The notes beneath the pieces are model-generated. The model saw only the letters and a list, made by a program, of their open reading frames with translations. It did no database searches and was not told the DNA's origin. Positions 3,228 through 41,800 of a stretch of DNA of 64,000 nt are shown piece after piece; position 1 is the stretch's first letter, and each line of letters starts with the position of its first letter. Source of the stretch: Bugula neritina (taxonomy: Eukaryota; Animalia; Bryozoa); NCBI GenBank assembly GCA_964035545.1, contig OZ037765.1, positions 24,551,504-24,615,503 of the forward strand, written 5' to 3'. The position numbers and the translations under genes were made by a program.

Positions 3228-4833
<1,606 letters not shown>

Positions 4834-11800: not shown

Positions 11801-14800
11801 GAAAATTAACCAGAGAGCATAACTCCTTGTCTTAAGGAAAGAGAGAGCAGAAAGGTTTCCAGGTGTAGATAGTCTTTATTTCAGCAGAAGATATAGTATA
11901 AAAGTCAGTGGTGTGGCCTTGGGGAGCTCTAGCGGTAGATTGCTCTACACTAGAAAACTCACCTCCTTTTATACTCTAGAAGTCGAAGGCTGCAGAAGTT
12001 CAGACGCCCCGACTTCTAGAATATTTTATCTGATCATCAGTCAAAATCATGCACCTCGAACTTCAAGAGCCCTAAATCGGTTGCCCTGAAATCCGGGACT
12101 CTCGACCTCAGCCGAGATCGAATTTAAAAAAAGAAAGCGAGCTGTATAAAATATAGTTACAAGAGAAGACAATTTTAAAGTTAACACCAAAGTCTACTGC
12201 AGTATGTCACATGGAAGAATGATAATTTATTTTATTTGAATAAATTCTATACATGGTACAAAACATTTTTTTTTATGAATGAAAAATATGCTAAAGGCTG
12301 TGCTGTTTTCTCTGAACATAATGGCTATGTGTTTCCAGCTCATTGCCATCTTCTTGAAGCCAATGAACTTTTTCGCAGAACAAAATTTAAAGTTTAATTT
12401 TGAGCATTTTTTCATGGTTATAAAAAGCCTACAATTGTGATTTTATCTCCTCAATAGTTCGTCATATAAGTCGGTTTTGTTAAATATTTTTAGTTTGGTT
12501 TTGCAGCACAGTTTTTTAGTGTTTGTGGTAGCTATATCATGGTTTAAGGTCTTCAGCACCACTATGGAAGGCACTAAAGAAGATGCCCATAAGCTGATCG
12601 AGAAAATGGGTGTCAAGTTGACTGGAGATAATAAAGATTTGATAGGAAAGCCTTTGATGAAAGTGGTTATGAGAAAGTGGCTACCTGCCGAGGATGCCAT
12701 GCTTCAGATGATCACAATGTACCTGCCTTCACCTGTTACTTCCCAAAAGTACAGAATTGGTAAATATTTTTACTGTTTGACAGCTTTTTGGTTTTGCTGT
12801 TCATTTAAACATTTCGACTATCTAATTTTTTGCCTGTGTAATTACCTTCACACTACTTTAGTTAGGTTCCTGGATTTTTTTCTCTTCTATATCTTAGTTA
12901 TAGAACAGCATGTAAAACTTTGTATTGTGAAAATCATAAACGTCTTATCTTGAATGAATCAGTTTTTAAGTAGTGATTTGCTGTTGGTTTTTAGAACTTC
13001 TGTATGAAGGACCTAATGATGATGAGATTGCTGTTTCCATGAAGAGCTGTAACCCTAAGGGGCCAGTAATGATGTATGTGAGTAAGATGGTGCCAACATC
13101 TGACAAGGGCAGGTTTTATGCTTTTGGCCGAGTTTTCTCGGGAACAATTGCAACTGGACAAGAGTGTCGTATTATGGGCCCCAACTATGTCCCTGGAAAG
13201 AAGGAAGATCTTTATGAAGAAAGTATTCAAAAGTAAGTACTATTGTACATTATAACTCAATTCACACTGCCCAAGCTCTAGATGCAGGCTAATTGTTGAT
13301 GTATTCATATAATTCAGAACTGTCTCTATGATGGGCCGCTATTTTGAGCCAATTGAAGATGTGCCATGTGGAAACATTGTGGGATTGGTTGGAGTGGATC
13401 AGTACTTGGTTAAAACTGGAACTATTACCACATTTAAAGATGCTTACAATATGAAGGTTTGTTTGTTATTCTTATATCCAGTGCTACTCATTGAGTTTAA
13501 AAATGAAATGAGTAGTTTTTTAAACTGTTGCTAATCTTGTATATATAGTTTGAATAGACATGCAAGTTTTACTTCTATTGAATAAAGTTACTAATTGTGC
13601 TTGTGGTAGCGAATTTAAATTGTTTCTTGTTGCCCCATAATTCCCGCTGCTGCTATGCTTTGAGCGCAAATCAAAAAATATTTTGCTGCAACTTTCAATT
13701 GTGGTCTATGGCCAAGGTAGATGACAATAGATTGGTTTTTCTTGGTAATTTAAAAAAATACCATTTGTATTTTAAAATACACCAACAACATAATATTTTG
13801 TGCAGTGAACATAACTTATTGTAGATGATGAAGTTCAGTGTACACCCAATTGTTCATATCGCTGTTGAATGTAAAAACCCCTCTGATCTCCCTAAGCTAG
13901 TTGAAGGCCTAAAGAGATTGGCCAAGTCTGATCCTATGGTTCAGTGTTGCATTGAGGAGTCAGGTGAGCACATCATTGCTGGTGCTGGCGAACTTCATTT
14001 AGAGATTTGCCTGAAAGACTTGGAAGAGGACCATGCTGGTATTCCTCTCAAGAAATCTGATCCTGTTGTGTCATACAGAGAGACCGTTGCAAAAAATTCA
14101 AGCATAACTTGCTTGTCGGAGTCTCCTAATAAGCATAACCGATTATTTATGACGGCCTCTCCTATGCCTGAGACTTTGCCTGAAGTCATTGAAACGGTAT
14201 TGTCTTTATTCATCGATTCATGCAATACAACACCTTCAACTTTGCTAGTGACATCAGTGTTTCTCAAGAGCAAATTTTGGTCACATGTGGAATTTCTGTA
14301 GTAAATTTATTCACTTGCTGTAAGAATAAGAACTACTACATAGAACCCCTGGCAAGCTTCATTTATCCAGCTTTGAAACATTTATATATAATATTCTTAG
14401 CTCACTGCAGGCTATTCAGTGATTGTACGCTCAAACAATTTTGTTCCATATTAAATTTTATGCCCATGCTGACTTTCATTGCATGCTATTCCTAGCTGCT
14501 GTAGCACACTGACTCCCCGTTCACCGATTGCCTTACCTTACGCCATAACAGCACAAACAAAATGGCGCAGCTGTTATGTTTTGTCAACAGGCTGTGACCA
14601 GTCATAATAAGGCTAATTCTTGTCTGCGCTGAGTTGTGCGGCTTTGAATATTATTAACTTATTTGTCGAAACATTCTTCTCAAAGATATGATAGAAATGC
14701 TATTGACTAGATAAAGCAATTGAAAGAAAATATCTCTGTTAAATACATGTGTCTTTAAAATAATTGTGCAAACTAATTTGAATAATAAATATTTAAACCG

Positions 14801-16577
14801 TCTAAATAATTTTTAGGTTTTTGTTTGCGTGCTTTTGTGATTAGGGAAAGCTAGACTTTTAAGCTGAGTTTAATTTAAAGAAGCCGGATAAAGATTTTTT
14901 AAGCTTTTAAAACTTTTGAATTGGTTAAATTAAATCAACAATAAGCGATTACGATAAACTAGCGAAAATATTATTTTAATTTTAGTAACAGTTCAACTCT
15001 ACCCAATGCGAGCCTGCCTTGTTTTTTTTAATTAAGCACGATTCAGCCCGGATGTTACCAAATAGGGCGGACATTTGCTGTTAAGGCGTATGGCAATGTG
15101 TGAACAGGGGTTATGATACCACAGACACCAGAGCCAAACGAAAACATCATCAGCATGAGTACAAATTTATTATAAAGCAGTATTGTTTAAGCATGCAACC
15201 CTCAAACAATCCGTAAGTACTGCAAGAATGAAGTGTGTCAAAGATTCCCAAGTATCATTTCCCAAATTTGTGCACATCCATGATTTGTATAAAAATATAT
15301 GTTATCTTCTATAATTTTGCTTTATATGCAGGGACTCTGTTTGCCATATATTTAGGGAGAAATAAACCAAAAACAAGATGCTGAAGAAAGAGCCGGCATA
15401 CTGGCTGAAGCGTTTGATTTTGATATGAACGATGCTCGTAAAATCTGGTGTTTTGGTCCCGATGGTACAGGTGCAAATATGCTTGTAGATGTCACTCGTG
15501 ATGTTCAATGTTTGAGTGAAATTAAAGATAGTGTTGTTGCCGGCTTTCAGGTATAATTATTTTTATCTGCATGTGTAAATAACGTTTTGAGATTGTTTGA
15601 GGTAGGTTATTTGGAAGAAAAATTTATTCTATGCAGCTTATCCATCCTTAATGAAGTTTTAGTGTAGACTGATGTGCAACTTTGCTTTAGCAAGTAACAT
15701 AAATATGCTATATTTTACAGCAGTAATACATTAGTTGTTTCACGAGATTTTATTCGTCATTTTCACAATCATCCACCATTCTGATTAAGTGGGCCACCAA
15801 AGAAGGCGTGCTGTGTGAGGAGAACATGAGAGGTGTCCGGTTTAACATTCATGATGTCACTCTTCACGCTGATGCTATACACAGAGGAGATAGTCAGATC
15901 ATCCCTACCACAAGAAGATGCTTGTATGCCTGTCAGCTGACTGCTCAGCCCAAACTTATGGAGCCTGTGTACCTTTTTGAAATCCAGGTAATGAGTTCTG
16001 CCGCAATGTTGTGCCTATTTGTTATATGTGGATCTGATACGTTCAATTGTTTCAAGATGAAACTGGTTTTGATATCTTTTAACTGAGCCTAATTTAGTTA
16101 TCACTCAGTTCATTTTTTCATCTTCTTTACTTTCAACAAACTATTGTGTAATTGCAGTGTCCTAATGCAGCTGTGGGAGGCATTCATAGTGTTGTGGGCC
16201 AGCGGCGTGGGAAAATTGAGAACGAAAACCAGTTGACTGGCAGCCAGCAAGTGATTTCTGGTTTTTTACCAGTCAATGAGTCCTTTGGTGTGTATGGGTG
16301 TTGTCTATCACTCTTTGTTTGCATTATAGTTAGAAGCAACTGTGAAGAACAAAACTGCATTTCTCGTCCTTTTGTTTTTGTAGGGTTCACATCTGCTGTA
16401 AGAAAAACTACTGGTGGGCAAGCTTTCCCACAGTGTGTGTTCAATCATTGGCAGGCTATGCCCGATGATCCTTTGAAACCATGTTCTAAGTCTGGTGTTG
16501 TAGTTCGTGAAATTAGGGAACGTAAAGGCTTACAAGAACTTGTACCTGCCCTGGAAATTTTTAATGACAAATCATAA
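8892..16577 (+). CDS. EEF2: Eukaryotic elongation factor 2-like, divergent paralog (13 coding exons, frame open throughout)
   Basis: Exons 8892-8894 (ATG|GTAAGT), 9294-9502, 9869-10053, 10556-10764, 10848-11081, 12549-12759, 12995-13232, 13318-13456, 13825-14196, 15356-15550, 15790-15987, 16159-16287, 16384-16577. Motifs [61 protein letters not shown]. Confidence 0.9.
14515..15110. mobile_element. MITE-like insertion in an eEF2 intron
   Basis: Imperfect terminal inverted repeats: CCCCGTTCACCGATTGCC..TACGCCATAACAGCA and TGCTGTTAAGGCGTATGGCAATGTGTGAACAGGGG. A weaker outer inverted repeat lies at ~14425-14471 / ~15150-15195. Confidence 0.55.
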
Positions 16578-17290: not shown

Positions 17291-17701
17291 AAATAAAAGT
17301 TACATAATCTCACTTCTGACGTCCCAACTGTGGTGGCTCGTGGAGCTACCAGCAGCGTAATAACGGGAAATGTTATTTCCCCCACGGGGTCATAGAGATG
17401 ACCCGAAACAACAAACAACCAATCAGCAGGACTGACAGTTCTTAGTAGTAGCTGCTTCCCGCGATTTAGTTAGTTGAGTTTAGGCTGGTGAACTGTGTAG
17501 ACTGGAATATTGTAATGGATTTCAGTAATGCAATTAATAATTAGTTTATATATCGATCGAAAGGGTCGACTCTATGTTATCTTATTGTGGAGGTCGACTA
17601 CATCGACTCCCAGCCAAAGTACATCTTATGGTCGACAGTGGCACCAATAATACCAGCCAATCACGAAGGACTGTTAATTGATAGCAGGTGGAGCTAGCTA
17701 G

Positions 17702-20640
17702 TGTCAGATCAGAGAATACACAGTACTTTATATTTTTGCAGAGTAGATACTGCACAGCAACTTGATGTATTTACAGAATGATATGCTAATAGTGATTATG
17801 ATTGAAACTTATGGTTTGAATATATGTGCATAGCTTAAAAGCTTTAGTAAAGCAGTGGAAAAGAAACTCAAACTTTATCATGGCCTTGCAAAATTTACTG
17901 GGGTAGACTCCAGCATGGCTTTGCAAAATAATTTACCAGGTATATAGCAATAGTTTTCTACGTAGCAAATACTTATTTTATTGACGAAAAAGGAAAACGA
18001 TAAAACGGATGCACCCTCATTAGGAGGTTTGCATCCTTATAAGGACCGACATCAAGATGGAAAAAAAATGTTTATTTTATGAGATCGGAAATGTTAAGGC
18101 AGTTGCATCTTCATTAAGACCTACATTAAGACTGAGAAAATTATTTGCTAATGTACATAATAGAAATATCAAATAGCCTCATTGCTATGAAGCTTGCAAG
18201 AACTGTGGGAATATTTTCACTAAAAGTTAGAAGTAGAGTTTCTATTAGTTATGTCATAAGTTGTTAAGCTAAAGTGTTGATATATATATCATTATTTTCA
18301 GAAAATTCTTTAAAAGAGCTATATCCTTGATGGAAGACATGATTATACATGTACTGTCCTTTGTGTTTAATTCTTACTTCTGTACTTTACAAGTTATGTC
18401 TCTGAGATATTCTGTCAGCTCTCTAAAATATGGCTTTGGCGATGCTAAGGTTTGTTTGAGATTTCCAGTAAAATGGCTGCTGCAACAGGTTGATGCAATT
18501 ATAAATTCTTATATCTGCTCCACCACGGTATGTAGGCTACAGTCTATCTACAACATCCAAGAAAGAATATAAAGTACATTCGAAATTATATGATACATGA
18601 GGCCCAGTAATTAAGTGAAGTTAAAAGCTCAAATGTACAAGTTTGGAGTAAGTTGAATATTTGGTCTCGCATATAAATTGCTTGATGCATTATTTAATAT
18701 ATGACACATGGTTTTATAGCTTCTTTAGATAATGCAAATGATATTATTTAATAGTGTGGCTTTTAGATAAATAATTGTGTTAGGATAGCACCACATGCCA
18801 TGTTCACGTGTTGAAATTTGTAATATTTACTTAAAGTAAAACATTAATTGATGAACAAAAGGAGATGAATAAAAAGCTGAAACATATGACAGATGCTGTT
18901 CATAAATAGAGATACACATATGTATATGTGTAAATATTTATTTACATTAACATATAGATGATATAATGTTTTAAAGGCTTAATAAATTATTTGACATTGA
19001 TCAGCCCGTTACAAAGGTCAACACGTGAGCATCGGGTGATATATTTTATGATATTAAAGTTTTAAATGTTATTCTTTAGATTAAGAATTACTGTACAATC
19101 AATGGTGATATAAGCCTACAACATACAAGAAATGAGCCAATGATAATAGATCCTTCTTACGTCAATCCCTATCTTAAGCTGTAAAGCTGCCAACATACCT
19201 GGTCAAGTTCTACGTCAGTCTGCCGCCGGTTTTCATTGGCCAGTTATCGTCGGTATCCGTAAAATCTGAACCATTGCCAAGAAGATTTAGTATAAGAGGA
19301 GCCAAATTTCTGAAAATAGAAGAGTATTGGATGGAAATTGGAGGAAGTATTGGATGAAGATATTATAGAAGATAAAAGGCAGCTAAGGACAATCGGAGTA
19401 TAGGAAATATAGTAGCAGTAATAATTATATTAAGTGTTAGAAGGAGCGGCAGGAAAAAGCTGACTGACTAATACAAACACTAACAAATATATTGGTTGCA
19501 GTAAGTAATATTACAACTTCATGCTTAAGGGTATCGCAACTTCTTTTATTATTTGAACTAATAAGTGTATTAATTTTTCTTTTGAAAGCAGCACAAACTT
19601 GTTGAAGAAATTTTGTTTGAATTGATCTATTAATTTCTTTTAAGCAGCATAAATTATTTGAAGAGAAACTGTTGATTTGATTTACTGATTTTAAAGCAGC
19701 ATAAATTTATATTTAAATTGAGAAATTTATTTCTAGTTTACACAAATCTATATTTGGGAAATGTTTGGATTGAGAAAGTATTTGAATTTTTAAAGCTGCA
19801 TAAATTTATATTTGAATTGAGAAATTTGTTTCTAGTCTACACAAATTTACATTGGAGAAATATTTGAATTTTTAAAGCTGCACAAATTTATATTGGGAAA
19901 ATATTTGAATTTTAAAGCTGCACAAATTTATATTTGAAAATTATTTGGATTGAGAAACATTTGAATTCTAAAGCTGCACTAATTTATATTGAAGAATTTA
20001 TGTCAAGACTGCATGAGTCTATGTTAAAGCAAATATTTTATTATTGATGTTTCAACTACAATTCTCATTGTGTATTTAATTCTGTATAAGTCTTTTCTAT
20101 CCCAATTGTCAAACTTAGCTATTTATGTTGCTAGTATAACACAGCAAGATTTCAAAGGGTCGCTAGGACAATCTTTGTTTTGGTTCACTCTTGTAATATT
20201 TTGCTATTGTGATTTGCTTGCTTTGTCATTATCATTAAATAGATATATATATATTATACAACACGCACATAATTATATTATAATTTCAATTCTTCTGGGG
20301 GAGCAAATCCCAAATTTGTCTCACAGAATATTAGCCCGAGTGCTAACCATTACACAATATACATAGAACCGCATATATACATTACTACATGATTTCCAAA
20401 CCATAATATTTGTCGAGCAAAGATAACTCTTATCTTTAATTAATTAACTGCAAAATTATATAGAAATTTTGAAACTAAAAGCTAATGAATAATTTCGCTT
20501 CATTGTAACTGACCAGTCTGACTAAATTAGAAGTTCAATTTCAATTGATTCAAAATTAATAATTTAGCTATATAATTATAAATTACAAAATTTACCCAAA
20601 ATTTATAAAATAATAATATATTTTAAATTTTTGTTCGACA
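17702..20640 (+). mobile_element. 2.9-kb non-coding element with TGTC...GACA ends inserted in the Gypsy 5' LTR (copy 2)
   Basis: Flanked by CTAGCTAG on both sides (17694-17701, 20641-20648). Removing it restores colinearity with the 3' LTR. Homologous to 1-1863. Internal ~38-bp tandem array at ~19580-19990. Confidence 0.85.
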
Positions 20641-20868
20641 CTAGCTAGGTGGAAGCATGCTGAGTAGCTAGGGCAGAGCAGCTTAGGACTTGGTTTAGAG
20701 TAGTTGTGTACATAGTGCTCGGTATTATGTAATCGTATAATTCATGTTAGTAGTAATTCAATTCTTGTATCTTGTAAATAATAAACTTGTTATAACGTAA
20801 ATAACCTGGTGTAGTAACTTTGTATAAGTCGACCCACATAATATAGTGAATTGAGAAATTCACTACAG

Positions 20869-20888
20869 TGGTGGCAGCGGTGGGATTC
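20869..20888 (+). promoter_or_regulatory. Primer-binding site, tRNA-Leu
   Basis: TGGTGGCAGCGGTGGGATTC, one base after the LTR, is complementary to the 3' end of metazoan tRNA-Leu (GAAUCCCACCGCUGCCACCA). Confidence 0.85.
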
Positions 20889-20928
20889 CACTTTGTACAA
20901 ATGCTCCTAGCCAGGGAGTAGAAAGAAG

Positions 20929-21803
20929 ATGGCTGACAAGGACGACGCGCCCGGACAGGAACCTGTAGCAGTAGAGGAGGATCACATAGGCGGCCCAGCG
21001 CTGCCTATGGACAGGTACCACTTGCGGGCTCCCATCTTCTCAGGAGAAGAAGATGTGGAGCAGTTCATCACTGAGTTCAGTGATGTGGCGGCCATCTGCA
21101 GATGGCCGAATAGGGTTACTCTGATCCAGCTACGGTTATGTCTGACAGGGCCGGCTAAACCCTATGGGATAAGCCCGAATGTCGGTGACATATTTGAGGC
21201 ATTGAGAGCTCGGTTTGGATTAACCGCTCAAGGTGCTCGCGTGCAACTCCAGGGGCTTAGGAGAAAAATATTAAGACTAACCTGCGAGAGCATGCGACCG
21301 TAGTCGAAGGGCTGGCACAAGTCGCCTATGGCGACTTGCTTGCTAATAGTCGACAGAGCTTAGCACTGGATGCATTCCTCCAGTCTATTAACAACCTCGG
21401 GTTGAAACAGCATCTGCTGGTGGCTGAGGTTGAGACCATGGAGAGAGCTCTAAGGCTTGGAAATGCCTATTTCCAAGCCGACAGTGCGTGCCGGTCTGGT
21501 ACGACAATACAGCAGGTCAGAGCAGACGACGACGTGTCGACGTCGCCGGCAAAGACAGCTGTAAATGTCACCAAGGCAACAGCCAACGAGCCGACTAGCT
21601 TGACCACAAACCTGGTTCGAGAGTTGCTAGCTGAGATCAGGCAACTACGCCAGCAGTCAACAGCCGAGCGACCCAGAGGGTCGTTGACAGCTGTCGACGA
21701 CAGATGGCGCCCCGTATGCTGGGGCTGTGGTAGGGGTGGGCACTTCATGCGAAGTTGCCCCCATGGTAGAGGGAGGCAGTTAAACGGCAACGGCCCACGG
21801 TAA
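20929..21803 (+). pseudogene. gag: Gypsy gag (frameshift near 21270)
   Basis: APIFSGEEDVEQF capsid-like start and CCHC knuckle CWGCGRGGHFMRSC. Confidence 0.85.
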
Positions 21804-22199
21804 CTTCCGCCAACCGTGGGCCCCGGTTTCACCCTCCAAGGCAGAGGCCAAGGCCCAAACCCCACCGGGTGAGGAGGTCGCCTTCGCCAGAGTGGCAAGC
21901 TCCAAGGAGAGTTAGTAGGCCGCAAGGCCAGCCAAAACCTCCGGCTTGGGCACTCTAAAACCGCTTTGAAGGTTTGCCTGATGAGGGAGTGTACGACGAG
22001 TAGGAGCGAAACAGTGATTTCCCTCGGTTGCCCACACGAGCACCAGTCCGAGAATTCACTCGGCCGCCCGTGTGTGAGCAAGACCGAGATGTAACCTGCT
22101 TGCCCACGCGACGTCGACGACCCCCTCGCAACCGAAAAGCACAGGTGTATCCCCAACTCCATGCACATGAGGTGTCGCCTCAAGAGGCGAACCACTCAG

Positions 22200-25100
22200 T
22201 GAGCGCTCAGCTATATGGAAGCAGTTATTTCCTCCCCAGCAAGCTTGCCGGCAAAGCTGTCACATTCCTGTTGGATACTGGGTACACCACAAACTTACTG
22301 AGTTGGCGTCTATTCTCAGTGCCAGGGACAGGGCTAGCCTAGAACCATATGAAGGGGAGCACGGCACGTTAGCGGACGGGTCATGTATTCCTTTCTATGG
22401 GGTAATTCAGTTGACTGGTAGAGTCCGTGATCAGACGATCAGCGAGGCCTTCATCGTCAGTCAACTCAAAGAGGACGCCATCTTGGGCATGCCATTTCTG
22501 AAGCGACACAGGTGCTACATCGACTTTAACAAGTCGGCGGTAGTGATGGCCGGACGTGAGCTGGCCTGTGTCGACCGATTTGGCCGACCCTTGGTGGGGG
22601 GAGTGCAGGTGGTACAGCGCTGTACTGTACCTGGGCGCTCCCGTGCTACAGTTCGCTGCAGAGTGAACTGTAGGGAAATCTCCGAGCTAGGAGTGGTGGA
22701 AGGTGCACTGGGGGGCGTCCAGCTCGCTAACAGTTTGAATAGACTGGATGAGCGGGGGGAGTTCCTGGTCCAGTGCGTGAATCCTTTCACGGAGCCGGTA
22801 GAATTGCCGGCTGGGTCTCTAGTGAGGAAGTTCCACTCCGTACAGGAGGAGGATGTTGGGCCCGCACTGGAGACAGCGGACGAAGCCCGTGGGGTACTAG
22901 AGACGGCAGGGGGCCGGTGCCTGAACACGTAGCGGAGTTGTACGAGGATGCCTGTGATGGCTGCGAGAGCAAGCAGAAACGCCTGGTGATGGCGCGGCCA
23001 CTCTCCGAGTACAAGGACGTGTATAGTTGCGGCGACCATGACATGGGTCTGACTAGGGCTGTCTGTCATGAGATACTCCTGGCGGCGAAGGCGGCACCGA
23101 TTCAGCAGCCGACCCGCCGGTTAGGTCCTGAGAAAGAAAGAGAAGTGAGCCGACAGGTGCAAGACCTTCTGAACCGGGACCTGATTGAGCCAGGCCATGG
23201 GGCCTGGAGTTCTCCAGTTGTCCTGGTTCGGAAAAAAATGGGAGCCGGAGGTTTTGCGTTGATAATCGCAAGCTAAACAGCGTGACCATTCAGGACGCTT
23301 ACCCTCTCCCTAGGATCGATGAGTCGCTCGATGCCTTAGCTGGTAGCAAGTTCTTCAGTATGTTGGACTTGTTAAGAGGGTATTGGCCGGTGCCCTTGAG
23401 TCCTGAAGCACAGGACAAGGCTGCATTTATTACGGGGGATGGGCTCTGGAAATGGAAGGTGCTGCCATTCGGACTTACGTCTGCACCGGCTACCTTCCAG
23501 CGACTCATGGAGCAGGTCTTGAGTGGGCTACACTGGAAGACCTTGCTCATTTACCTCGATGATGTCATTGTCATCTCCCCCGACTTCGACACACAAGTCA
23601 GTCGACTCAGGGAGGTGTTTGACAGACTTCGAGCTGCTGGTCTGAAGCTCAAGCCCTCTAAGTGTGCGTTACTGCAGCGCCAGGTCTAGTACCTCGGCCA
23701 TGTGGTTGGTCGAGACGGGGTCGCCACTGACCCCGAGAAGGTACGGGCTGTGAGGGACTGGGCTGTTCCTGTCGACCTCCCTGAATTGCGGGCATTCCTG
23801 GGACTGGTAGGGTACTATTGTAAGTACATACCAAACTTCGCAGAAATTGCACAGTCGTTAAATCGACTGACAGCAAAGGGGGTGCGATGGCAGTGGACAC
23901 AGGCCGAGCAGAAGGCATTTGACCACCTGAAGGATTGCCTGGTGGAAGCACCCATCTTGGCGTATCCTGACCCAGCAAAGGAGTACATTTTGGATACTGA
24001 TGCCAGTAACCATAATGTGGGGGCTGTGCTGTCGCAAGTCCAAGATGGTCACGAGGTGGTGGTGGCTTACTATAGCAAAGCCCTGTCGGCGCCTGAAAAG
24101 AACTACTGTTCAACCAAGAGGGAACTCCTGGCAGTAGTCAAGGCGGTCAAATATCTTAGACCATATCTGGATGGGCGTACAATCTGACTACGGACGGGTC
24201 ATGCGTCTTTGATATGGCTGTGTCGAGGGGCTGAACCATCAAGCCAAGTGGCGCGCTGGCTGGAAATTCTGGCAGAGTTTTCTTATCGGATCGAACACCG
24301 ACCCGGTAACAAACAGGGTAATGCCGACGGACTCAGCCGCCGCCAGGCAGATGGGTGTAAGCAATGCCAGAATGTCAAGTGCAGGAATGGTGGACCCCCT
24401 CGCTCGGACGTTGAAGAACAGTTGGGGAAAGCGGGTGTATACAGCTGGGAGGAAGGACAACTTCTGTCCGAATCCTCTAATGAGGCTGGTAACAACCTTC
24501 ACGCAAACCCCACGCTGCTCAGGAACGTCAAGAAGATGTGTCGGCTCCAAGCTACTTTACCAGGGGTGGTAGCTGACCTAGTCCGGGCCAAGAAGGAGGG
24601 ACGGCGGCCGAGTGAGGCTGAGCAGCGGGTGAAGAGTGTAGAGTTTAAATACTTCTGCGACCGCTGGGACTCTCTCCAGTTTAACAGCGATGGGCTGCTG
24701 ACGATAATGTTAGCAGCCGGCACCAATTGCCGTGAACGAGAGAGGGTAGTCTGTCCGTCCGCTCCGAGGTGGGAGTTGATCTGGGACACCCATAAGCAAG
24801 CTCATGCAGGAAATGGACGAGTGACTAGGTGTCTTCAACTCCAGTGGTTTTGGCGCGGTATGACCCGGGATGTCCGACTTCGGGTGCGGAAGTGTGAGGT
24901 AAGCCAAGCTAGTCAGCATGGCCGCTCCACTGAGACCGCAGGGAAGCGTCGCTTCCATGCTGGTCGTCCGTGGCAGGTAGTTGCTGTAGATCTGGTAGGC
25001 CCCATGCCCACAACAGTGAGAGGTAATAACTGGATACTAGTATTAACTGACCATTTCACGCGGTGGGCTGATGCATTATCTATTCCAGATGCGTCGGCCC

Positions 25101-26275
25101 CTCGGTGGCCAGAGCCTTGGATCAGCAGGTATTCTGTTATTTCAGCTTGCCGGAGCAGATACACTCTGATCAAGGCGCCCAGTTTTAGTCGCAACTTATG
25201 AGCGATCTCTGTAAAATGTGGGGGGTAAGCCAGAGTCGGACGACCCTGTATCACCGGCAAGGGAACGGGGTTGTGGAGCGGAACAACCGAATGCTAGGGG
25301 ACTCACTTAGAAGCCTGCTTATCGGTAGGAGCCAGGAAGGGTGGGACTTGGTGTTGCCGCAAATTATGCGAGCTTACCGTAATACCCCTCACTCCAGTAC
25401 ACTGGAGACCCCTAATTTTCTCATGCTGGGGAGAGAAACCTGGGTTCCTGAGCACGTAACCTATCATGTTCCGGCTCCAGAGAGCAACGTCCACGGTCAC
25501 GTGGACGAGCTCGTAAAATGCATGGGGACGGCTCACAAGGTGCTACGTGAGCAGCAATGGCAAGTCAGGAGTGGTGACTCTGATGACTCCCCCCCCCCTT
25601 GTATAAGGTGGGAGACTGGGTCTGGATGACCAGTCATCGCCGGCGGCGCAGACAGGGGGCTAAGTTGCAGCCGAAGGTTTTTATTGCGCGATTAAGGTGA
25701 TGCCTAATGACACATAAAGTGGAACGGTCTGGACAAGTGTCGATCCAGAACGAAGCACGGCTGAAACCTTACTGGGCGAGTCATGATGCAGCAGGTCAAG
25801 CACCTCCTCTCTTAGAGCCCGCTAGACACCTTCCTATGAGGGGGCGAGGCATGGTGTATAAAGAGAAATAGAGGAGATACTGCAAGATCAGGAAGGAGCG
25901 GCCGACGCGCCGCCCGACTCGCCTCCCGACTCGCCTCGGCCACTTCCACTCCAAGAGGAGGAGGCCGACATACTGGAAAACAATTCAGAGCCGGCCCCAC
26001 CACCAGTGGAGCCGGCCGACGGGCCTATCGCCCCGGATAAGATGGCATTTCCTCAAATTCATAAGGAAGGGGCAGCTGGGAGGGGACCACCCGTACTGGT
26101 GGATCCCCCCCGTACTGGCAACACCACCCGTGGTGGAAGGGTCACCAGCAGCAGCAAGTTCCCCAGTAACGTTGGAACGTAGTCAACGTACCAGGGCGCC
26201 ACCATCTTATTTAAGAGACTTCTTGTGCGACTTGGTTGACATGCACAGTATTTTGTAACATGTTGACATGGGCAA
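22200..26275 (+). pseudogene. pol: Gypsy pol (protease, RT, RNase H, integrase) with several frameshifts and stops
   Basis: FLLDTG; PFGLTSAPATFQR and YLDD; DTDAS..GAVLSQ; VAVDLVGP, DHFTRW, NGVVERNNR; C-terminal RSQRTRAPPSYLRDFLC. Confidence 0.92.
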
Positions 26276-26493
26276 AGAAGTCTGGGGGGCGAGGTAATTG
26301 ATAGCATGCTGCCCAGTGGCGGATAGAATAGGTCCGCCGGGGGTCAGCAGAGCAAAGCCAACTAAATAGCGTATAGGGTGTTACATAACCACTCTAGTTG
26401 TGAGCGCTCTTTTCAATTGCAAACAGGCAGCACGTCTTTTTGCAGTGATCAATTTGGCTACTACGAGTCCTAAGAAAACAGATAGCAAACATT

Positions 26494-27704
26494 ATGTCTA
26501 ATGCAGCAACTGTTTTGGAGGGTAAGTCTACTGGAAATTCTATATTAATTAATTAGAATTTACTCTGGTAGCGATATCAGTCTCGCTTTATCATAATGAT
26601 AAAGTTGAAACTCCTATCAGTTGATACGTCGATGATTAGAGTGGGACAGTCAACTCAACTGATTGTGTGATCAGTGAGTGGCAGACTGTGTGACTTAGTT
26701 ATCAGTATTGTATTGAAACAGGAGTTCCACGCATAGAGTGTGATTTAAACAATAGATGAATTTAAATACTCTATTGCAGGCGAGACTGAGTCTGTATCTG
26801 ATGAGATACAGGCACTGCTTGACACACCGGCCACCAACTGGGATAGCATGTCAGAGACAGGGATGGACATGCTGTCCGACATGCACCTGTCGACGATGAC
26901 GGACTCATCGACAGTGACGACCAGACATACTGCCATGCAATTAGACCTCACTGACTTGACTGAGATGACTGACCAAACTATCGCACTACCCCAAGCATTA
27001 CTACGACGAACAAACTGGACTACTCGACGGACACGCACACTGATACAGGCATTGATAGGGACTGACCACAATCAACAGTGCGCTGAATGCAGACGGACTT
27101 TCTCGACTATGAAGCAACTAAAAATACACATACCGCAACACTTGACTGTAACTTTCTGTCCCTGTGGAGTCCACCACTTCTACAGGGACGCTTTACTGCG
27201 ACACCAAAGGACCCAGAACTGTTATGTCGGACATCTATCATAGTCGACGCTGACTCATACACTGAATTTGGAGACTTGATCCTACCACATGTGACTGACC
27301 CGGACCGAAGACAGACGCTACTAGACCAGCTCCCCGCCACCCGACCGACAGTAGAAAGCGACTCAGACGCAGACACTCAGCCCCCAGAGACTACGACGAC
27401 AACACATACTTCAGACGTGACCACACAGCCCCTCCGTGTTATTGTGACCCGCACTGGACGCACGATAGGAACAGACTCACAACCTCTAACTACAACCATC
27501 TCTTATGTACCTAGTCGCCAGCAGAGGAAAAGAAAAAGTACTGGTAGTGCGACTAAGGAGAACATTAGCCCTGACCAGTCCCTACTGACAGACATCAAGA
27601 AATTACAGCGACGTTTGGCTCGTCTCTGTAAAGAGCAGAAGAGGGCGACTACTGAGTTAGCTAAATTGCAGACACGACTCGAGAGACGACTGGCAAAAGA
27701 GTGA
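26494..27704 (+). pseudogene. Gypsy-borne spliced accessory gene: C2H2 zinc finger, basic NLS-like patch, coiled coil (one frameshift near 27240)
   Basis: Exon 26494-26521 (MSNAATVLE, G|GTAAGT) joins in frame at TTGCAG|26780 to the 26848 ORF containing CAECRRTFSTMKQLKIHIPQH. It continues in ORF 27087-27704 with RKRK and a heptad-like C-terminus. Confidence 0.65.
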
Positions 27705-28375
27705 ACCGTGGAGCTGTTCCCCTTCCCCCCCCCCCTCTTTTCTACTAGGACTGTGTGTCATGATGTAAATAGACTATGTGTAACTAAATAGATCGTGCGT
27801 AATAGAATTTTTCTTATCTCGTGTGTACGTATACTTATTCTGTCATGTATATTCTTTTTCTACTTTTTTTTTATATAATTTTTCGTTAGTAATTCTTCCA
27901 TGCCTAATTTAATCATAGAGTGTACCTTTCGATAGGTGTGGAGAGTGTAGTGGATTTTAGTAATGTAATTAGTAATCTAATTTATATATCGAAAGGGTCC
28001 ACTCTATGTCATGTTATTGTGGAGATCGACACATCTTACCCAGCCGACATGCATCTTATGGTCGACAGTGGGACCACTAATGCTAGCCAATCAGGAAGGA
28101 CTGTTAATTGATATCAGGTGGAGCTAGCTACGCGTAGTGGAAGCACACTAATTAGCTAGTCGAACAGAGCAGCTTGGGACTTGGCATAGAGTAGTTGTGT
28201 ACAAAGTGCTCAGTATTATGTAATCGCGCAATTAGTTTAGTAGTTTCCTTTATTGTATCTTTGTAAATACTAAATTCTATATAACGTGAGCAACCTGGTG
28301 AAGTAGCTTTGTATAAGTAGACCCACATAATAATATAGTGAATTGGGAAATTCGCTACAGTAGTCTACCGGTATG

Positions 28376-30338
<1,963 letters not shown>

Positions 30339-32841: not shown

Positions 32842-35800
32842 ATGGGATCTTTAATGCGAAGTGAGCAAATGGTTTTATGCCAGCTCTTTCTTCAATCTGA
32901 GTCTGCATATTCTTGCGTATCAGAGCTGGGTGAACTCGGACTTGTACAGTTTAGAGATGTAAGTTAATAGCAGCTTTTACTAAACTTTTATATTCACAGG
33001 TAAAGACTTGCTTGAATCTGGTGCTTATTGGAACTAATTTTCTTTTCAATATTTCTTCTACAGCTTGTCTGCTTTTTGCTTGTGTTCCAAGTATAGAAAT
33101 CCCAAGAAAATCTCGTGGATCTTGCTTATTCTTGGGATTTGCCCAGTTCATCACAGTTTATATATTACAGCTTAACCCAGATGTTAATGCCTTTCAAAGA
33201 AAATTTGTAAGTGAGGTGAGAAGGTGTGATGAGATGGAAAGAAAGTTGAGGTATATTGAAAGAGAAATTAAGAAAGATAAAATACCAGTACTAGATCTTG
33301 GTGACAACCCTGACGCACCCGCTCCCCGAGAAATGATTGATTTAGAGGTAAGCCAATAAGTTATTCGAATTTATTTAAAATTAAAAAAAAAATTATATAA
33401 ATGCATTCTGGTATAACAGTTTATAAGCAACCCACGACAGCCTCGTACAAATGTATTTTCAGTTGGTTAGTTACAAGAATGAACTACCAGTACAGGCCAG
33501 AATCTAGTTGTCCTTACTATCTTTATTCTATTATCAACTATTGCTTTAAACATTATTTTATCAGTATATCTTGTTGAACTTGTCATCACGTGCTATGATC
33601 TGCATTAGTCATGGTTATTTTTATAGATAAAAACATTGCTAAATGGTAGTATATTGCTCGCTCTATACTTGGGAATCTCAATTGGAGCAGTTTAAGAATT
33701 TAAATGACATGTTGAATACCTCAAATATTTTTCGTTTTTATCTTAGGCCAGTTTTGAAAAACTTGAGAATGAGCTTCGGGAAGTTAACTCAAATAATGAA
33801 GCCTTAAACAAGAATTTCTTGGAGTTGACGGAGCTGAAGCATATTTTACGAAAAACTCAACAATTTTTTGATGAAGTGAGTTGATGTTATCAGCTTTTTA
33901 CGTTCTAGTTGGTGACCAGTCAATATTTATTGAGTATTAACATTAGGGTAGTGTAATGCACTAGTACAGTAGATATTACACTGTCATGCTTTATCAGCAT
34001 GTCTGTCCATGAACCTACAGCAATCAATGCATGTAGCTATGCAAGTCTAATGCCTATAGATCAATGCGTTTTAGTGGTCCATTTTCTTGAACAGTTTCAG
34101 TGGTTAGTAGCAGCTATGTACATGTATATGCAATTAACTGTGATCAAAGAAACGTGATTAGGCTCCAACAATATCAATAGTTTGTTACAAATTTATCTGC
34201 CATAGTTTTCTTTTTGAATGTCTGAATTAGTATTACTTAGTATTAAATTGGGAGACTGTGGTGATATATATATATATATATATATAATTTTGTCCTGGTC
34301 ACAATAATTGACATTGAGTTTGAAGAAGTTGGGCTAAGGGCTAATAATTTTTAGTTTTTTTGTCAGTTTTCAATAACTTTTTAATAGGTTTTTATAAAAA
34401 TTGAGAGGGATGGGCAGTAAACTAACATTCATTATTCCCAATACCTTGATCATCAATTGATAGGCAACCAGATTTGTTGTTACCACATGGCAAGTTGAAG
34501 CCACTACATCCTAAATTATTTAAAGCATTAGTAAACTGTTTGAGCTCCCAAAAAGTTTAATATGACTCTACATTCTTTTATGTTCAATTAAATTTTACTT
34601 GATCTTCTCACATTAACTAGTGATTTGCATCAGAAGGATATGTTTTTAAATTTTTATAGCTTTCTGCTGAATTAAACTAATTATAATTAGTGTGCTCTTT
34701 TGCTCACCCTGATCTTATTACCTTTTCTACTGGCTGTGGCTAGAATATATAATATTTTTGCTAACAAATAGTTTATAGGACTTTACAGCTATTATTGGGA
34801 CTGTTAGGATGTAGTTTCAAATCTGGGTGTGGGTAGTGCACATGTTTAGTGAATGCAGGTTGACACTCAGAACCGAACTTTAAGGACTGTTGATGATGAG
34901 CGTACGGGTTTGTTGTCCCCTGATAACTCGGTATCTGCAGTCGGTCAGAGACTAAGGTAAGCTGGCCTGATTACCGAGGCGGCTGTTTCATCAGACCAAC
35001 TGACAACAGTTAAACTCTAACCTCCTCTCTTCTCTTACGACTTTTTTCCTACTTATATTTAATTAGATGTGTCTTTCTTTGTCGTCAATAGCATGAGAGA
35101 AGCCTGCAGGCTGATGCTCAAGAGGCATTGGTGCATCAGGATCAACTAGAGCAGCAACAGCAGGCTCTGCACCTGGGGTAAGACTATGTTTTGCTGGCAT
35201 AGAGTAACCGTGGCAACCTATGTGGATATTTTTCTTCTACTTCTCGGAATGCTCTGTCTATTACCGTCGGCACATTAAGGCACTGTCCCTCGTAGTGTAC
35301 CGCATGTCCAGTAATTCATATCCCTTTTTATAGCATGGCTTTCGGTGTTGTCAGTTGGTGTGATGGATCATAGCCTTCCTTGGTTTGCTAACAATAGATA
35401 TTATCATCCTTACAACTTTTTTTCATCTCAATGAAGTCATAACAATGTAGCTGACCTCCCAGCGTATACATGTATTTAGCTTGTAATCAAAGTTGGCACC
35501 AGATCAATCTTATCTTAGCATTCTTATGTTCAATCAATGTTGTATATTTTCTAAGTGCATTATATACTGTACAGTATACAGTATACAGTATACTTCCTTC
35601 TTACCATACTAATATCCTGTTGTGGAGCCCTTACTGTCATCTTTCTACTATAAATTGCAATATGTTATAAACAAAAACTGAAAATTTGGATCTTTTTTTG
35701 TTCTTTAAATGCCTACCTTATGTGAAAGTTGTTAGTATTATGTTTACTGACTCCAATTTTTTCATGTCTATTTATTTGATTACTTATAGTTTTGTGGCTG

Positions 35801-38800
35801 GTGTGATATTGAGGGAAAGAGTCCCTGCCTTTGAGCGAATGTTGTGGCGAGCTTGCAGAGGGAATGTGTTTCTCAAACAGGCGCAGATTGATGTTCCCTT
35901 GTCAGATCCAGTGACTGTAAGTAATTTGTTACTTCACAATATCTGTTTATTAAAATAACCTGCTTTAGGTTATCTGACACATTTTTATTGTCTGAAATAT
36001 TTTTGTAAGACTTTCATTCCTGTTTTAGCATAGGTAATTTATTAGTTTGTGTAATGTTATAAAATGTAATGCTTTTTACGTCACTTTCTCTGTGCATTGC
36101 TTATTTGGTTTTTCTTTGACTGTAGGGGGACGAAGTCTGGAAATCAGTCTTCATCATCTTTTTTCAAGGAGATCAACTGAAAACAAGAGTAAAAAAGATC
36201 TGCGAAGGATTTCGAGCTACTCTTTATCCCTGCCCAGAGTCAGCTGCTGAGAGGAGAGAAATGGCTATGGGAGTGATGACAAGGATTGAAGACTTGAAGA
36301 CTGTGGGTTGAAAACTTCTGTTTTGTAATTTACTTTTGTTTGTAGTATATTATATGGTTTAATCAAAACAAACTTCAATATTTGTTTGTGTATAAAAAAC
36401 ACCAGCTGATATGATAATAGTTGACCTACTGCATTATAAAGTTACTTACTAGCGACCGCAGTCTTCCCATGTGGAATTATGATTAATATGTTATTGGTTA
36501 GCATAATTTAAGTATTAGAAACTATTTATGTTGTCAGCACCCCCAAAGGTGTCTAAAAACGAGACACATTCCCTAATATGCTGAATAGTGACTGGTGCGC
36601 TAAGAAAAGTTACATATACATACATTTGGCTGTAGGTGCTGTCTCAAACAACTGATCACCGACACAGAGTACTTGTGCTGGCAGCTAAGAACATCAAGAA
36701 CTGGTTCATTAAAGTGAAGAAGATTAAAGCCATATATCACATGTTGAACATGTTTAACCTGGACGTCACGCAGAAATGCCTGATTGCAGAATGCTGGTGT
36801 GCAACAGCTGACCTTGACAAGGTTCACCATGCTCTGAAGAGGGGACAGGTAATCCCTGCCAACTGTTTCAATACAATAGATTCAATAAATACAGTGCTCC
36901 CTCCATATCTCACGAATCCATTTCTCACGAAAGTCTGTCGGTCATGAGAAAGGCTTGAACCCTTTGTTTGTGGCCTATGTACGTGTGTATAGGGATCAAA
37001 TGGTTGAATTTAATGGATCTGTGAGTTAATCCTGGTATTCTGCTATATCAGGAGTTGAGGTTTCGGGACCTGCAGCTTAGTGAGATATGGAGAAAGCACT
37101 GTACAATAACTGATTCATGTATTCTTGAATGTAAATGTTTTACAGGAACGAAGTGGCAGCAATGTTCCGTCTATTCTCAATAGAATGGCTACTTCTCAGA
37201 AGCCTCCAACATTTCATCGAACTAATAAATTCACCAAGGTGTTTCAATCCCTCATTGATGCATATGGAATTTCTAGCTATCAGGAAATAAATCCTGGTAT
37301 GTTATTGTTTTTAAGTGTTGAAAAACATATTTTATATTTAATGGTTGATATTTGATATTCTATCTTATAAAAATGTTGTACAATTTTAGCTCCGTTCAGT
37401 ATCATCACGTTCCCATTCCTCTTCTCTGTGATGTTTGGTGATTTCGGACACGGATTTATTATGTTCCTGGCTGCTTTATGGATGGTTTTACGAGAGAGAC
37501 AACTTCAAGCTAAAAAGTCGGACAACGAAGTATGCATACTAAATACCCTAATAAAGATTAAATTTTGTCTTTTCTAAAAAAGTTTTAAACGTGAATTTGA
37601 ATTACTGCGGTATCCCCATCCTTAGCACATGCACATTTAGTGTATGGGCACACATCTTTCTCTCATTATTGCAGTTTGCACTATTTGATTAATTCTGTTT
37701 CAGATTTGGAACATGTTCTTTGGAGGGAGATATCTCATACTGATGATGGGGGCTTTCTCGGTGTATGCTGGCCTGCTTTACAATGACATCTTCTCCAAGT
37801 CCATCAATGTATTTGGCTCAAGCTGGAGCGTTCCTTCTGGCATATATTTCTTCAATGATTCTGTAGATAATTGGTTAACAAGTGCAACCTTAGAACCCAG
37901 CCCTTACCATCTGATTGAGAATTCATCTGGCAGATATTATTTGCCTTACAATGAAACAACCAGCTCCTTTTCTGGTTCTCCCTATCCATTTGGGTTGGAT
38001 CCGGTGTGTATATTCGTACTTAACATTAGTAGTTAGAAATGGTATTTTTAGTTTGAATGTTCTTGTAAGATATTTTGGATTTATGATGATTAGTTACCAT
38101 TTATATTAGAGTACTAAATTTGAGAGAGATGTAACAGTAAAAGCAAGCATTTTTTTAATTAGTTGAAATATTCTGAGGAGGTTATTTACACTGCTGATGG
38201 TTCTAATGTTTAGGATAATAGTCACAGAGATGCTGTTGTCAATCACAAAAGCCTAATTAATCTTCATTGCTTTGAGTCTCTAGATCCTTAGGAGTTGGGA
38301 TTAGTACTTGTATTTAATTATAAGAAGCAAATTTCAATTGTCTTCAGTATTTGTTGTCCAAACCTACATACTTGCATACCTACATACTTGTTGTTTCTGT
38401 TTAAGGTATGGGCGATTGCTACTAACAAACTGACTTTTATAAATAGCTTTAAAATGAAGCTGTCCATAATACTGGGAGTTATTCACATGATGTTTGGAAT
38501 ATGGCTTGGACTGCTTAATCACACGTAAGCATTGTTCCAGTAAGATTTGTTTACTATAGCAGTATGGGCTGAGTTTTTCCTTGTCATTTTACACTGGTCT
38601 AGTTGACATGTACACTGGCCATTAGAGAATGAATTATTCAGTTATAGCTCAGATAATATTGAAAACTAATTGTGAGGTACTCATTTGCTGTGATTCCATT
38701 AGCAAACCAGTTTAGAGTTATGATTGTGAGATAATATTTCACGCTGAACATACATATAAGCTGCATTATATTATCGTTCAGCAGAAGTTATTGAAACATC

Positions 38801-41800
38801 AGCATTGACAGGCTCAATGGAAAACTTTTCTGCGAAGAATATTTGACAAGCTTGATTTGCTGCTATTTGTCCGAATAAATGGTGCTACTAGTAACTAGAG
38901 TGTTTAACAAATTATTGGAATTTAATTCTCACATGCTAGCCACAGGCTACACCCTGAACCACAATGTACTTTTGTAAATTTAATTATATTTTCATACAGC
39001 TAGTAAGCATGCTATATTAGTACTATTAGGATACTACAATAGGGTTGTGTGGTGCTATAATAGTCTGTTTTATTTGATTATTTATCAATGGTCAGGTTCT
39101 TCAACCAAGCTATCAACATCTTCTGTGAATTTATTCCTCAAGTCCTTTTCCTCAGCTGCACTTTCCTTTATCTCGTTGTTGAAATTATCTACAAGTGGAT
39201 TTCATGGAGTGCCAGAGAGCCAAATCTAGATACTCTTACCGGTTGCTCTCCTAATCTTTTAATTGGTAAGTATCCTCATTTATATGATATTCGGTTTTCG
39301 ATACAATGTTTAGGCTACAGCATTTGTAAATTTGTGAAAAAAAGTACTTATTTTGCTGCCATATTTTCATCACTCACTTATTACACAGGGATGATCAACA
39401 TGTATCTTTTCACTGGTGGTCAGTACAATAACACACTGGATCCTATCACCAATGTTAACTACACATGCAGCTCTGCCAATCCACTTTTTGGTCAAGAAGG
39501 GGTAAGGATATATACTAATAAGTGTATTATATATTGTATAAAATATACTACTTCAACTCTTCTATCTCTTACTAAATGTCTGTTTTAGGAATTTGTGCAA
39601 AAGTTCCTAGTGATAATTATAGCAGTGTGCATACCTTGGCTGCTGGTACCCAAGCCCTTTCTGCTGTGGAGACGTGGGGTGAGCAAGGTAGACGAATCTT
39701 TAGTACTTCAGTGCAACATTGTATATTTATTCTAATGCCTGTCCCTTTTCCACTGAATTGTGGTGTACAATTCTAGCAAGTATTATAACTTTCTAGTCCT
39801 GTTTTAGGTTTAGAGACTCTCCACTTGTCAATTTGTAAATTTCAGACTTTTTAGCAAACAGAATTGTCAAAATTTTAGAATAGTTCTCTTACACTTTAAT
39901 TTGGTGTGCAAACTGAAATTGAGCACTGCTTGTTTCCTATAGCTTGAAATTAGGTAAACTTTTTCAGCTCCAACTTTAGCTAAAACGTATAGATTGATTT
40001 GGGCTGGCACAAGCAGTTATAAATTGGCACTTTTCATTTACTCAATTTCAGATATCAGATTTTATGCCTGTGTTATATTTTTGTTTATAAGAAAACGTCT
40101 AATAGACACATTCAAGCCGAAGGTGATATAATCGGTGACAGAGAGGAGATAATTCACCATGATCATTTGCAGATTAGTGATAATAATGATGATGCTCATG
40201 AAGAAGAGGTAGAATATTTATGTCATTTGTATTGACAGGCAGTAAATTAGTTTATCTGAACTTATGTCGCTAGACAGAGTCAGCTGAACAAATTTACTGG
40301 CTGTCCTAGTTTATACTTAGTTGTTAAAAGACTCACCTGTTCTTATGTATAGAAGTCATTCAAACCTACACATCAGCAGCAGGCTGAGCTTGATGACGAG
40401 CCAGTCAGCAATGGCTTGTTTGCTATGCATCAGGCAGATGAGCTGCTTAGAGCAGAGGGCTTTGGTGCAGATGTACCAGAGCAGGAGGAGAAGGTGATCT
40501 TGTGAGAGTAGCAGCTGTGTTATTGGTTGTAGATGTCTATGTTGTACAGTGCTTACTGTTTGAGTACCATCTGCTTTTGCATCACTTAAATGCTTTTTTC
40601 TTTCCCCAACATTATAATTTTTCACCCAATTGCTTGAAAAGTTATGTTTTGTGTTTGATTTGTGTTATTATTTGCCATTCTTAACAAGTTGCTATCCCAG
40701 CAAGTTGAAAGTACGTAATTTTAGAACCAATTGAATAGTACAACAATTTGTAGTCTTGTCTGGTTTTTTCTCGCTATATTTTGTCTTGCTCTATATTCAG
40801 CTTTGTCTTCATCAACTTAATTTCTGGCTATGAAGTGTCACTGTTGTATCATGTTTATAATTGGTGAACATTCACACTTAATGTATAATAAGCTGTTGTA
40901 GTTTGCAATGTGATCTTCTTTAATATAGATTATGCTTTGTCTTGCCTCTGCTATTCTAGTTTAAGCTGTTGATTTGTTTAACTTCCCTTCATATCTAGTC
41001 AGAGGCTACTTTCGTAATTTTGCAAACTACTTATTTGTAAAGTTGAAGGTCTTACGAAGCCCAGTTTAGTATATTTCAAGCGAAGAGATGGTGACAGTTG
41101 TGGACATTAGGTTGTTGTTTTACTCATTCAGCTCTCACATGAGTCATAGCAAACTACTGTCTGGTTAGATAGAGCTTGATATTTAACCCTTGAAATAAAT
41201 GCAAATAAAGCAGTCTGTCTAGGGAATGTTAATCACTCCATAATCATCAAGATGCTTAGTACCTGCAATGTAGATCTCTACACTGATATGTAGAAATAGT
41301 AATACTAAGGATACTATTTTTTAGGAATCAATCGGAGATATTGTGGTGCATCAAGCCATACACACAATAGAGTTCTGTTTAGGGTGTATTTCCCACACCG
41401 CATCTTATCTTCGATTATGGGCTCTCAGTCTTGCCCATGGCCGTAAGTACTTATCAGCATTTTATATTTTAACAAGTAATTTTCAAACCAATTATGTTTA
41501 TTTTTTGGCATTACTCAATGTTACTATGATTGTTACCAGGTTACAAGTGTGTTATAACATATTTTCTATAGAACTATCTGAAGTCCTGTGGTCAATGGTG
41601 TTGAAAATTGGCTTTACAATGAATAGTGGATATTTGGGGGCTGTAGTTATTGTGGCTGCTTTCCCTTTTTGGGCATGCCTTACTGTTGCTGTGCTGCTGG
41701 CAATGGAGGGCTTATCCGCTTTCCTCCATACCCTCCGTCTGCATTGGTAGGTTATACTGATTTTTTTTTCATGAAATGTATTTCAATTGGGTGTTTCAAT

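Follow-up and report, generated by a model that had tools for sequence, protein, structure and literature searches.

A spliced accessory gene, probably for a nuclear double zinc-finger protein, in the env position of a Gypsy element from Bugula neritina

Regulatory accessory genes are a hallmark of complex retroviruses, and the locus described here raises the question of whether a Gypsy element in an animal genome carries such a gene in the position of env, and what its product might do. The window, i.e., the whole stretch of 64,000 nucleotides that we analysed (Bugula neritina contig OZ037765.1, positions 24,551,504 to 24,615,503), is animal-type DNA of about 33% GC around the element. On one side of the element lies an elongation-factor-G/2-like gene (host exons 13825-16577, EF-G domains by Pfam) and on the other a V-ATPase a-subunit gene (exons 32955-41750, Pfam V-ATPase 116-kDa subunit). 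Elsewhere in the window, a host exon at 58315-59049 has a Pfam match to PIG-L, and about 1.7 kb at 3155-4946, open in all six frames, with 58% GC, a strong AT skew and no Pfam match, is a simple repeat. The element itself has two LTRs, a site for primer binding (PBS) and a purine tract enclosing gag and pol, as expected of Ty3/Gypsy, and consists of the following parts:

17511..17701, forward strand: left part of the 5′ LTR with its TG start, holding three exact and one near GTCGAC palindromes
17702..20632, no strand: later insertion of about 2.9 kb that splits the 5′ LTR
20633..20867, forward strand: right part of the 5′ LTR with its CA end
20869..20886, forward strand: PBS, presumably for tRNA-Leu; the identical 18 bases follow the LTR in a distant locus, L067
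20929..21803, forward strand: gag, with one frameshift and a weak CCHC knuckle
22171..26258, forward strand: pol (PR-RT-RNase H-IN), with several stops and frameshifts, a basic integrase tail and a stop at 26256-26258
27947..28359, forward strand: 3′ LTR, preceded by a purine-rich tract, which places the gene discussed below within the element

The order of pol is supported by Pfam matches to RVT_1, RT_RNaseH and Integrase_H2C2, in sequence, and the protease, which has no Pfam match, was assigned by motif alone. The insertion at 17702-20632 is AT-rich, with direct repeats of 40-100 nt at 19689-19992 and no ORF of 130 aa. With gag and pol repeatedly broken and 350 of 405 aligned bases identical between the two LTRs (86%), this copy is dead. 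The flanks at 17506-17510 and 28360-28364 hold no matching target-site duplication, so that LTR divergence is unusable for dating, and two copies may have recombined to form the element. Just 3′ of the 3′ LTR, a MITE-like element (28433-30295) has inverted arms of 312 nt that are 91% complementary and a (TA)n-rich core.

The gene of interest, ORF3, occupies the env position between the integrase stop (26258) and the 3′ LTR, with the following features:

26436..26445, forward strand: putative upstream acceptor, also visible in a sister's loose end; partner donor not found
26446..26521, forward strand: exon A, with ATG at 26494 followed through nine codons plus one base
26522..26779, forward strand: GT-AG intron of 258 nt, phase 1
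26780..27704, forward strand: exon B, encoding an acidic, Thr-rich N-terminus, the core domain, a basic cluster and a C-terminal helix
27079..27222, forward strand: tandem fingers C-x2-C-x12-H-x3-H and C-x-C-x12-H-x5-C, within a predicted compact domain of about 110 aa
27525..27536, forward strand: RKRK, a predicted nuclear localisation signal
27583..27701, forward strand: C-terminal amphipathic helix, a predicted coiled coil

The putative upstream acceptor, TTTTTGCAG, ends at 26445. The donor after 26521 reads G/GTAAGT and the acceptor before 26780 reads TTGCAG, and joining them in phase 1 leads in frame into the ORF at 26749-27243. This donor is the sole GGTAAGT within the 7,078-nt internal region and scores highest of the GT sites at 20633-26780 in a simple matrix. 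GC content is 35% in the intron, 50% in exon B and 57% in the pol tail. Exon B of the window copy has a single frameshift near 27240. The initial annotation, made from the letters of the window, had proposed the acceptor at 26446, the ATG at 26494, the donor at 26521, the 258-nt intron, the acceptor at 26780 and the in-frame joining, and every one of these coordinates was confirmed; the fingers, RKRK, the C-terminal helix and the one frameshift are likewise present as it claimed.

Is this intron really removed? We aligned the contigs of four public runs (X1, X3, X5 and X6) over 26425-26860 at 80% likeness; some runs containing the element are labelled “symbiont metagenome.” Exactly 258 nt are skipped in two of the four runs, X1 and X3, which come from two studies and contribute one contig each, with 46 and 30 letters, respectively, on the short side of the joint; the joint does not occur in X5 and X6. 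It was marked “between: not known” and placed from 26523 to 26782, two bases to the right of the prediction, an offset to be expected, since in sisters a GT opens both the intron and exon B. X1 may be the very run from which the window comes; X3 is tentatively taken to be DNA, and if so, its joint-bearing contig is a copy made from spliced RNA. A contiguous gene call on a 1,546-nt JGI contig (P0184) runs through the nine exon-A residues directly into an exon B that is 72% identical to the window's, and is the one protein among 50 of the family to carry the exon-A peptide. In six of the 50, whose calls start inside the intron, [IVT]-A-G-E spans the acceptor, and the letters upstream diverge. 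Intron-keeping forms thus number 6 to 1 over intron-less ones where the N-terminus tells, as required by the premise of the initial annotation that sense-strand introns outlast retrotransposition only where genomic RNA escapes splicing. The ATG, the GT and both AGs are untouched among the 40 of 75 variant rows listed, which is a hint at most. Judged from these sequences, the 258-nt intron is genuine, and some copies have lost it at the predicted borders.

The gene had also been called “multiply spliced.” One intron is demonstrated, by the 258-nt skip and by P0184, but a second splice is conjectural: for the acceptor at 26445 no donor could be established (candidates score at 24899 and 26294), no joint reaches this acceptor cleanly, although it is present in a sister, and the joints ending at 26454, among those listed, are non-canonical. 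Within the intron, the stretch 26575-26619 is covered by contigs far more deeply than the adjoining sequence in each of the four runs, and it may be a motif common to another repeat.

ORF3 is not peculiar to this broken copy. A search with exon B yielded 24 relatives among 36 candidates, and a profile search 43 relatives among 7,838 candidates, many of them open proteins of 274-312 aa that span the window's frameshift; many relatives at 60-90% identity keep the frame open there. In the 5′ part of exon B (26780-26830), eight of the 10 variants listed are synonymous, where chance would give 22-28% (P 1e-4 to 1e-3), a count that rests on 40 of 75 variant rows and is not a dN/dS; read in the other two frames, 2/9 and 0/9 are synonymous. 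At the sequence level, what the initial annotation had named as speaking against its reading did not appear: the region is present in sister copies, with a continuous frame and splice borders in use, and the variants listed lean synonymous. We are confident that ORF3 is an accessory gene under selection, which is spliced and encodes a nuclear zinc-finger protein.

The core of this protein is the double-finger domain, whose profile gathers 169 clusters (50% identity) at E ≤ 1e-3 and 60 at 1e-10. Across 94 aligned cores the zinc ligands are conserved at 93-100%, within a pattern of W..T...I, C-x2-C, R-L-x2-H-x2-Q-H, F-C-x-C-G, R-D, H-Q and V-D. Finger 1 has the classical C2H2 pattern C-x2-C-x12-H-x3-H with its F and L core, and is modelled as a beta-beta-alpha fold. 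Finger 2, described at first as atypical, does have C-x-C with a variable last ligand, and the linker TGEKP is absent; the idea that it is a decayed finger was ruled out, as C-x-C-G...H ranks with the best-conserved segments of the family. In Pfam the window's domain falls under every cut-off, with C2H2 at 17.2 bits vs. 25.2 (cut-offs 25-27; PF00096, PF13894), and so do P0025 and P0030; only P0042, with two domains, just passes one model. Our domain profile in turn matched a C2H2 array at E 1e-7, and the Atlas search returned only unnamed clusters and low-share C2H2 clusters.

AlphaFold2 predicted for a natural relative, P0011, one compact domain of about 110 residues (pLDDT 91.9, pTM 0.82), in which additional conserved helices and a strand wrap the finger pair. 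Most of the top structural hits are tandem C2H2 pairs bound to DNA, namely Kaiso, SALL4, ZBTB38 and ZBTB20, at Z 3.5-3.9 and rmsd 2.3-2.8 over 50-57 residues covering the finger pair only. No match was found at Foldseek E ≤ 1e-3 or Z ≥ 5, and the domain as a whole has no solved counterpart in these searches. In the model of P0025 the flanks are disordered and a C-terminal helix follows. The sequence upstream of the domain is net acidic in 43 of 47 relatives and that downstream net basic in 55 of 64, with a basic cluster downstream in 51 of the 79 that are long enough. A terminal heptad helix occurs in 30/48 (3.8 after shuffling), and a homodimer modelled for P0179 scored 0.31, with the mark at 0.32. 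An acidic-helix motif is found in six of 15 long relatives, with a pattern that was derived from these same sequences and has one match within an integrase. Ten of 115 proteins (P0030, P0034, P0040, P0044, P0049, P0053, P0118, P0122, P0123 and P0173) share a [PA]-Y-K motif in the disordered region upstream of the domain.

An Env protein was considered for this position and dropped, as neither signal peptide nor transmembrane segment is evident. Over 19-residue stretches, hydropathy peaks at 0.69 and 0.09 in the two frames of the window and at 0.54-0.96 in 12 relatives, nowhere above 0.96, which agrees with the non-Env assignment made at first.

What, then, would such a protein do? The combination of an acidic N-terminus, a finger pair, a nuclear localisation signal and a coiled helix is the layout of an activator, and the reading we favour, with slightly less than even confidence, is that the ORF3 protein enters the nucleus, binds repeated sites in the LTR and activates transcription of the element, by analogy with foamy-virus Tas. 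Unspliced RNA would serve as the genome and as the gag-pol message, and spliced RNA, beginning either in the 5′ LTR or from an internal promoter (both equally possible), would give ORF3; most genomic RNA would escape splicing, as the excess of intron-keeping copies suggests. The finger pair would read DNA, the acidic N-terminus would recruit co-activators and the C-terminal helix would oligomerise, with the GTCGAC palindromes of the LTR as the candidate target. Against this, the structural matches are weak, confined to the finger pair and uninformative on function, and C2H2 fingers bind RNA and protein too. Moreover, CERV, the product of the C. elegans Gypsy/Ty3 element Cer1 and the sole tested Gypsy protein with such a layout in the literature consulted, is dispensable for transcription (PMC10309623).

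The 5′ LTR holds four exact GTCGAC (17565-17636 and 20828), against 0.05 expected (0/5000 simulations), a motif that was picked after inspecting the sequence. The 3′ LTR, with sites at 27997-28066 and 28317, has one exact GTCGAC (P 0.03) plus worn counterparts; seven more lie in gag-pol and none between pol and exon A. Repeats in LTRs are often host-factor sites. The LTR of the distant locus L067 repeats another hexamer, GACCGA/TCGGTC (GACCGA five times), though the R and RD of the fingers are conserved. The hexamers of both LTRs contain CpG, and the top structural rows include two readers of methyl-CpG, Kaiso and ZBTB38. This would suit an anti-silencing protein acting at CpG-containing, possibly methylated LTR sites, where it would hold off host repression and would not recruit activators. 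However, these two rows are tied (Z within 1) with fingers that do not read methyl marks, and no enzyme domain was found to go with the fingers, and we give anti-silencing only a slim chance.

The strongest rival to transcriptional activation is RNA export in the manner of CERV or Rev, whereby the spliced product would bind the element's unspliced RNA and carry it out of the nucleus, so that the intron survives retrotransposition. CERV, the one tested Gypsy precedent, is needed for export of genomic RNA (PMC10309623), and the ratio of intron-keeping to intron-less forms given above means that most genomic RNA must exit unspliced. An NES-like pattern at the N-terminus of 13/21 window-family proteins (2.2 expected) points the same way, but the members of one family are not independent, and outside it there is no enrichment (9/71 against 6.2 expected), for which reason we dropped the NES as a family-wide feature. 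Intron-less copies do occur, so the intron is not strictly protected; the top structural matches are DNA-bound pairs; and distant elements have the domain in long unbroken frames, of 726 aa in L067 and joined to Pol in P0173, with no intron visible. We regard export as possible but rather unlikely, and activation of the LTR remains our preferred reading.

The distant elements bear on a further question, namely where the domain came from. A related-locus search in viral and metagenome contigs confirmed no relatives. A degenerate pattern gave eight viral and 84 metagenome loci, and one of these 92, L067 (CAJIBL010000229.1), is a true member. Its domain lies in a frame that is open for at least 726 aa, immediately before a purine tract, an LTR-like stretch, an 18-base PBS identical to the window's and a gag related to the window's gag; from this arrangement it follows that the domain is Gypsy-borne far outside the window family. 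ORF3, LTR, PBS, gag and the start of pol stand in tandem or circular order in L067, and its ORF3 has an internal duplication of 145 nt.

In P0173 (ENA), RNase H, integrase, an SH3-like tail and the finger domain are joined in a single frame of 1460 aa, and among the 47 relatives with at least 100 aa before the fingers, six from about four lineages of the tree have an integrase-tail-like motif in frame upstream, separated from the domain by 109-454 open codons. The domain and the integrase tail share an open frame in P0173, P0123, P0117, P0108, P0128 and P0095. These fusions speak for integration targeting or chromatin tethering, in which an ancestral Pol tail, a counterpart of the chromodomain, would now act in trans from a separate gene. 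The tail motif is a pattern of our own making, though, and Pfam confirms pol domains in P0173 alone; a search for relatives of 840-2395 aa found none among 7627 candidates, which is weak evidence. Furthermore, in the fused forms the integrase tail is followed by a Met and an acidic segment, so that they may be expressed separately, and in the window family the integrase has its stop while ORF3 uses a different frame with its own ATG and intron. Tethering seems to us distinctly unlikely, if less so than anti-silencing.

A third setting of the domain is found in bryozoan genes. Named members were present in three of the 30 clusters looked up, every one of them bryozoan. The Watersipora gene models XP_067940963/4 contain two tandem domains, and the Bugula models KAF6037488 and KAF6040922 also carry the domain. 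P0202 and P0206, of Bugula type, combine one kind of host-like first exon with two different domain exons, whose contiguous counterparts, P0029 and P0026, show acceptor-like residues at the join. Host-like first exons with psi-K-x-E motifs are seen in P0202, P0206, P0172 (Watersipora) and P0198, and such an exon ahead of the domain exon fits use as a chromatin or transcription factor. In a quick tree, from which 33 of 146 rows were omitted as near-duplicates (23 of them window-family), bryozoan sequences are scattered among element-borne ones, and one Bugula sequence is sister to the window family with support 90. It is possible that bryozoan hosts repeatedly co-opted the domain exon, the direction being tentative because the context is known for few rows. 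The same gene models and the sister sequence might instead suggest that ORF3 is an incidentally captured host exon with no function. This is already largely refuted and very improbable, given the synonymous bias, the many open relatives, the identical slot in the very distant element L067 and the scattering of the bryozoan sequences over a tree that also contains element-borne ones.

In total, three layouts of the domain were observed: fused to Pol, spliced separately and placed behind a host-like exon. As a whole, we consider it conceivable, if doubtful, that a widespread animal Gypsy lineage encodes its own sequence-specific transcription factor, that the domain moved from the Pol tail into a spliced gene and that bryozoans repeatedly wired the exon into genes of their own. 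If this is true, Gypsy elements would count as “complex” retroelements that show Tas-like autoregulation, and would also supply hosts with new zinc-finger factors. The three layouts make both the origin of accessory genes from pol and the donation of zinc-finger modules by retroelements to hosts testable, and the LTR palindrome is a concrete candidate target. No description of the double-finger domain, of its range or of the three layouts turned up in the literature that we searched, which did not extend to Repbase, Dfam, GyDB, subscription journals or supplements, so that a prior annotation is possible; the accessible portions of two annelid LTR surveys make no mention of “zinc” (PMC8556966; PMC8220671).

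How does ORF3 compare with known systems? Chromoviruses carry a chromodomain at the C-terminus of integrase, and the distant families that put the finger domain in the Pol frame behind integrase resemble them in this respect; however, no chromodomain match was found in the window's integrase tail or in P0173, and in the window family the domain belongs to a separate gene. With host C2H2 pairs such as those of Kaiso/ZBTB33, SALL4 and ZBTB20/38, the predicted beta-beta-alpha pair can be overlaid at rmsd 2.3-2.8 over about 50 residues, whereas the ORF3 domain stays below the Pfam cut-offs, lacks TGEKP, has a C-x-C finger 2 and is wrapped by extra elements. Foamy-virus Tas/Bel1 offers the analogy of an accessory gene near the 3′ LTR for which, here, a role as a DNA-binding LTR activator is proposed. 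Tas belongs to the Retroviridae and is reported to bind an internal promoter as well as the LTR (PMC517496), whereas the only candidate here is the LTR palindrome, with none between pol and exon A; homology is not implied. Extra ORFs in the env slot are common in plant and fungal elements, and share with ORF3 the slot and conservation across copies, with that of Bagy2 also spliced and their function mostly unclear (PMC7264820). As far as the available text of that source goes, the sense ones are env-like, some with transmembrane segments, and others are antisense, whereas ORF3 is sense, soluble and two-fingered.

The closest parallel is CERV, which is spliced, has its C-terminal half encoded in the env slot and carries, besides a zipper and a basic NLS, a Cys-rich region and a candidate NES (PMC10309623). 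A Gypsy element whose env slot holds a spliced accessory gene for a nuclear protein other than Env is thus already known. The initial proposal of an element-encoded nuclear regulator like those of complex retroviruses stands insofar as ORF3 is element-borne, conserved and spliced, with parts that fit; the analogy itself already has its Gypsy precedent. ORF3 and CERV are alike in being spliced non-Env products of an env-slot ORF with a predicted NLS and zipper. CERV is a protein of 517 aa from five exons that share their frame with gag, and is reported from nematodes only (PMC10309623), whereas ORF3 has its ATG in a small exon downstream of pol and its relatives are widespread. CERV, with H, M (ring-forming, Cys loop) and G-protein-like domains, has a C4-like loop, whereas the core of ORF3 is a C2H2 plus C2HC pair; fold searches gave no match to a G domain, and the ORF3 model has no room for one. 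Beside CERV, the only tested Gypsy case found in the literature, ORF3 adds another candidate, apparently unrelated to it and far more widely distributed, and CERV is a precedent for the type of gene and not for the domain.
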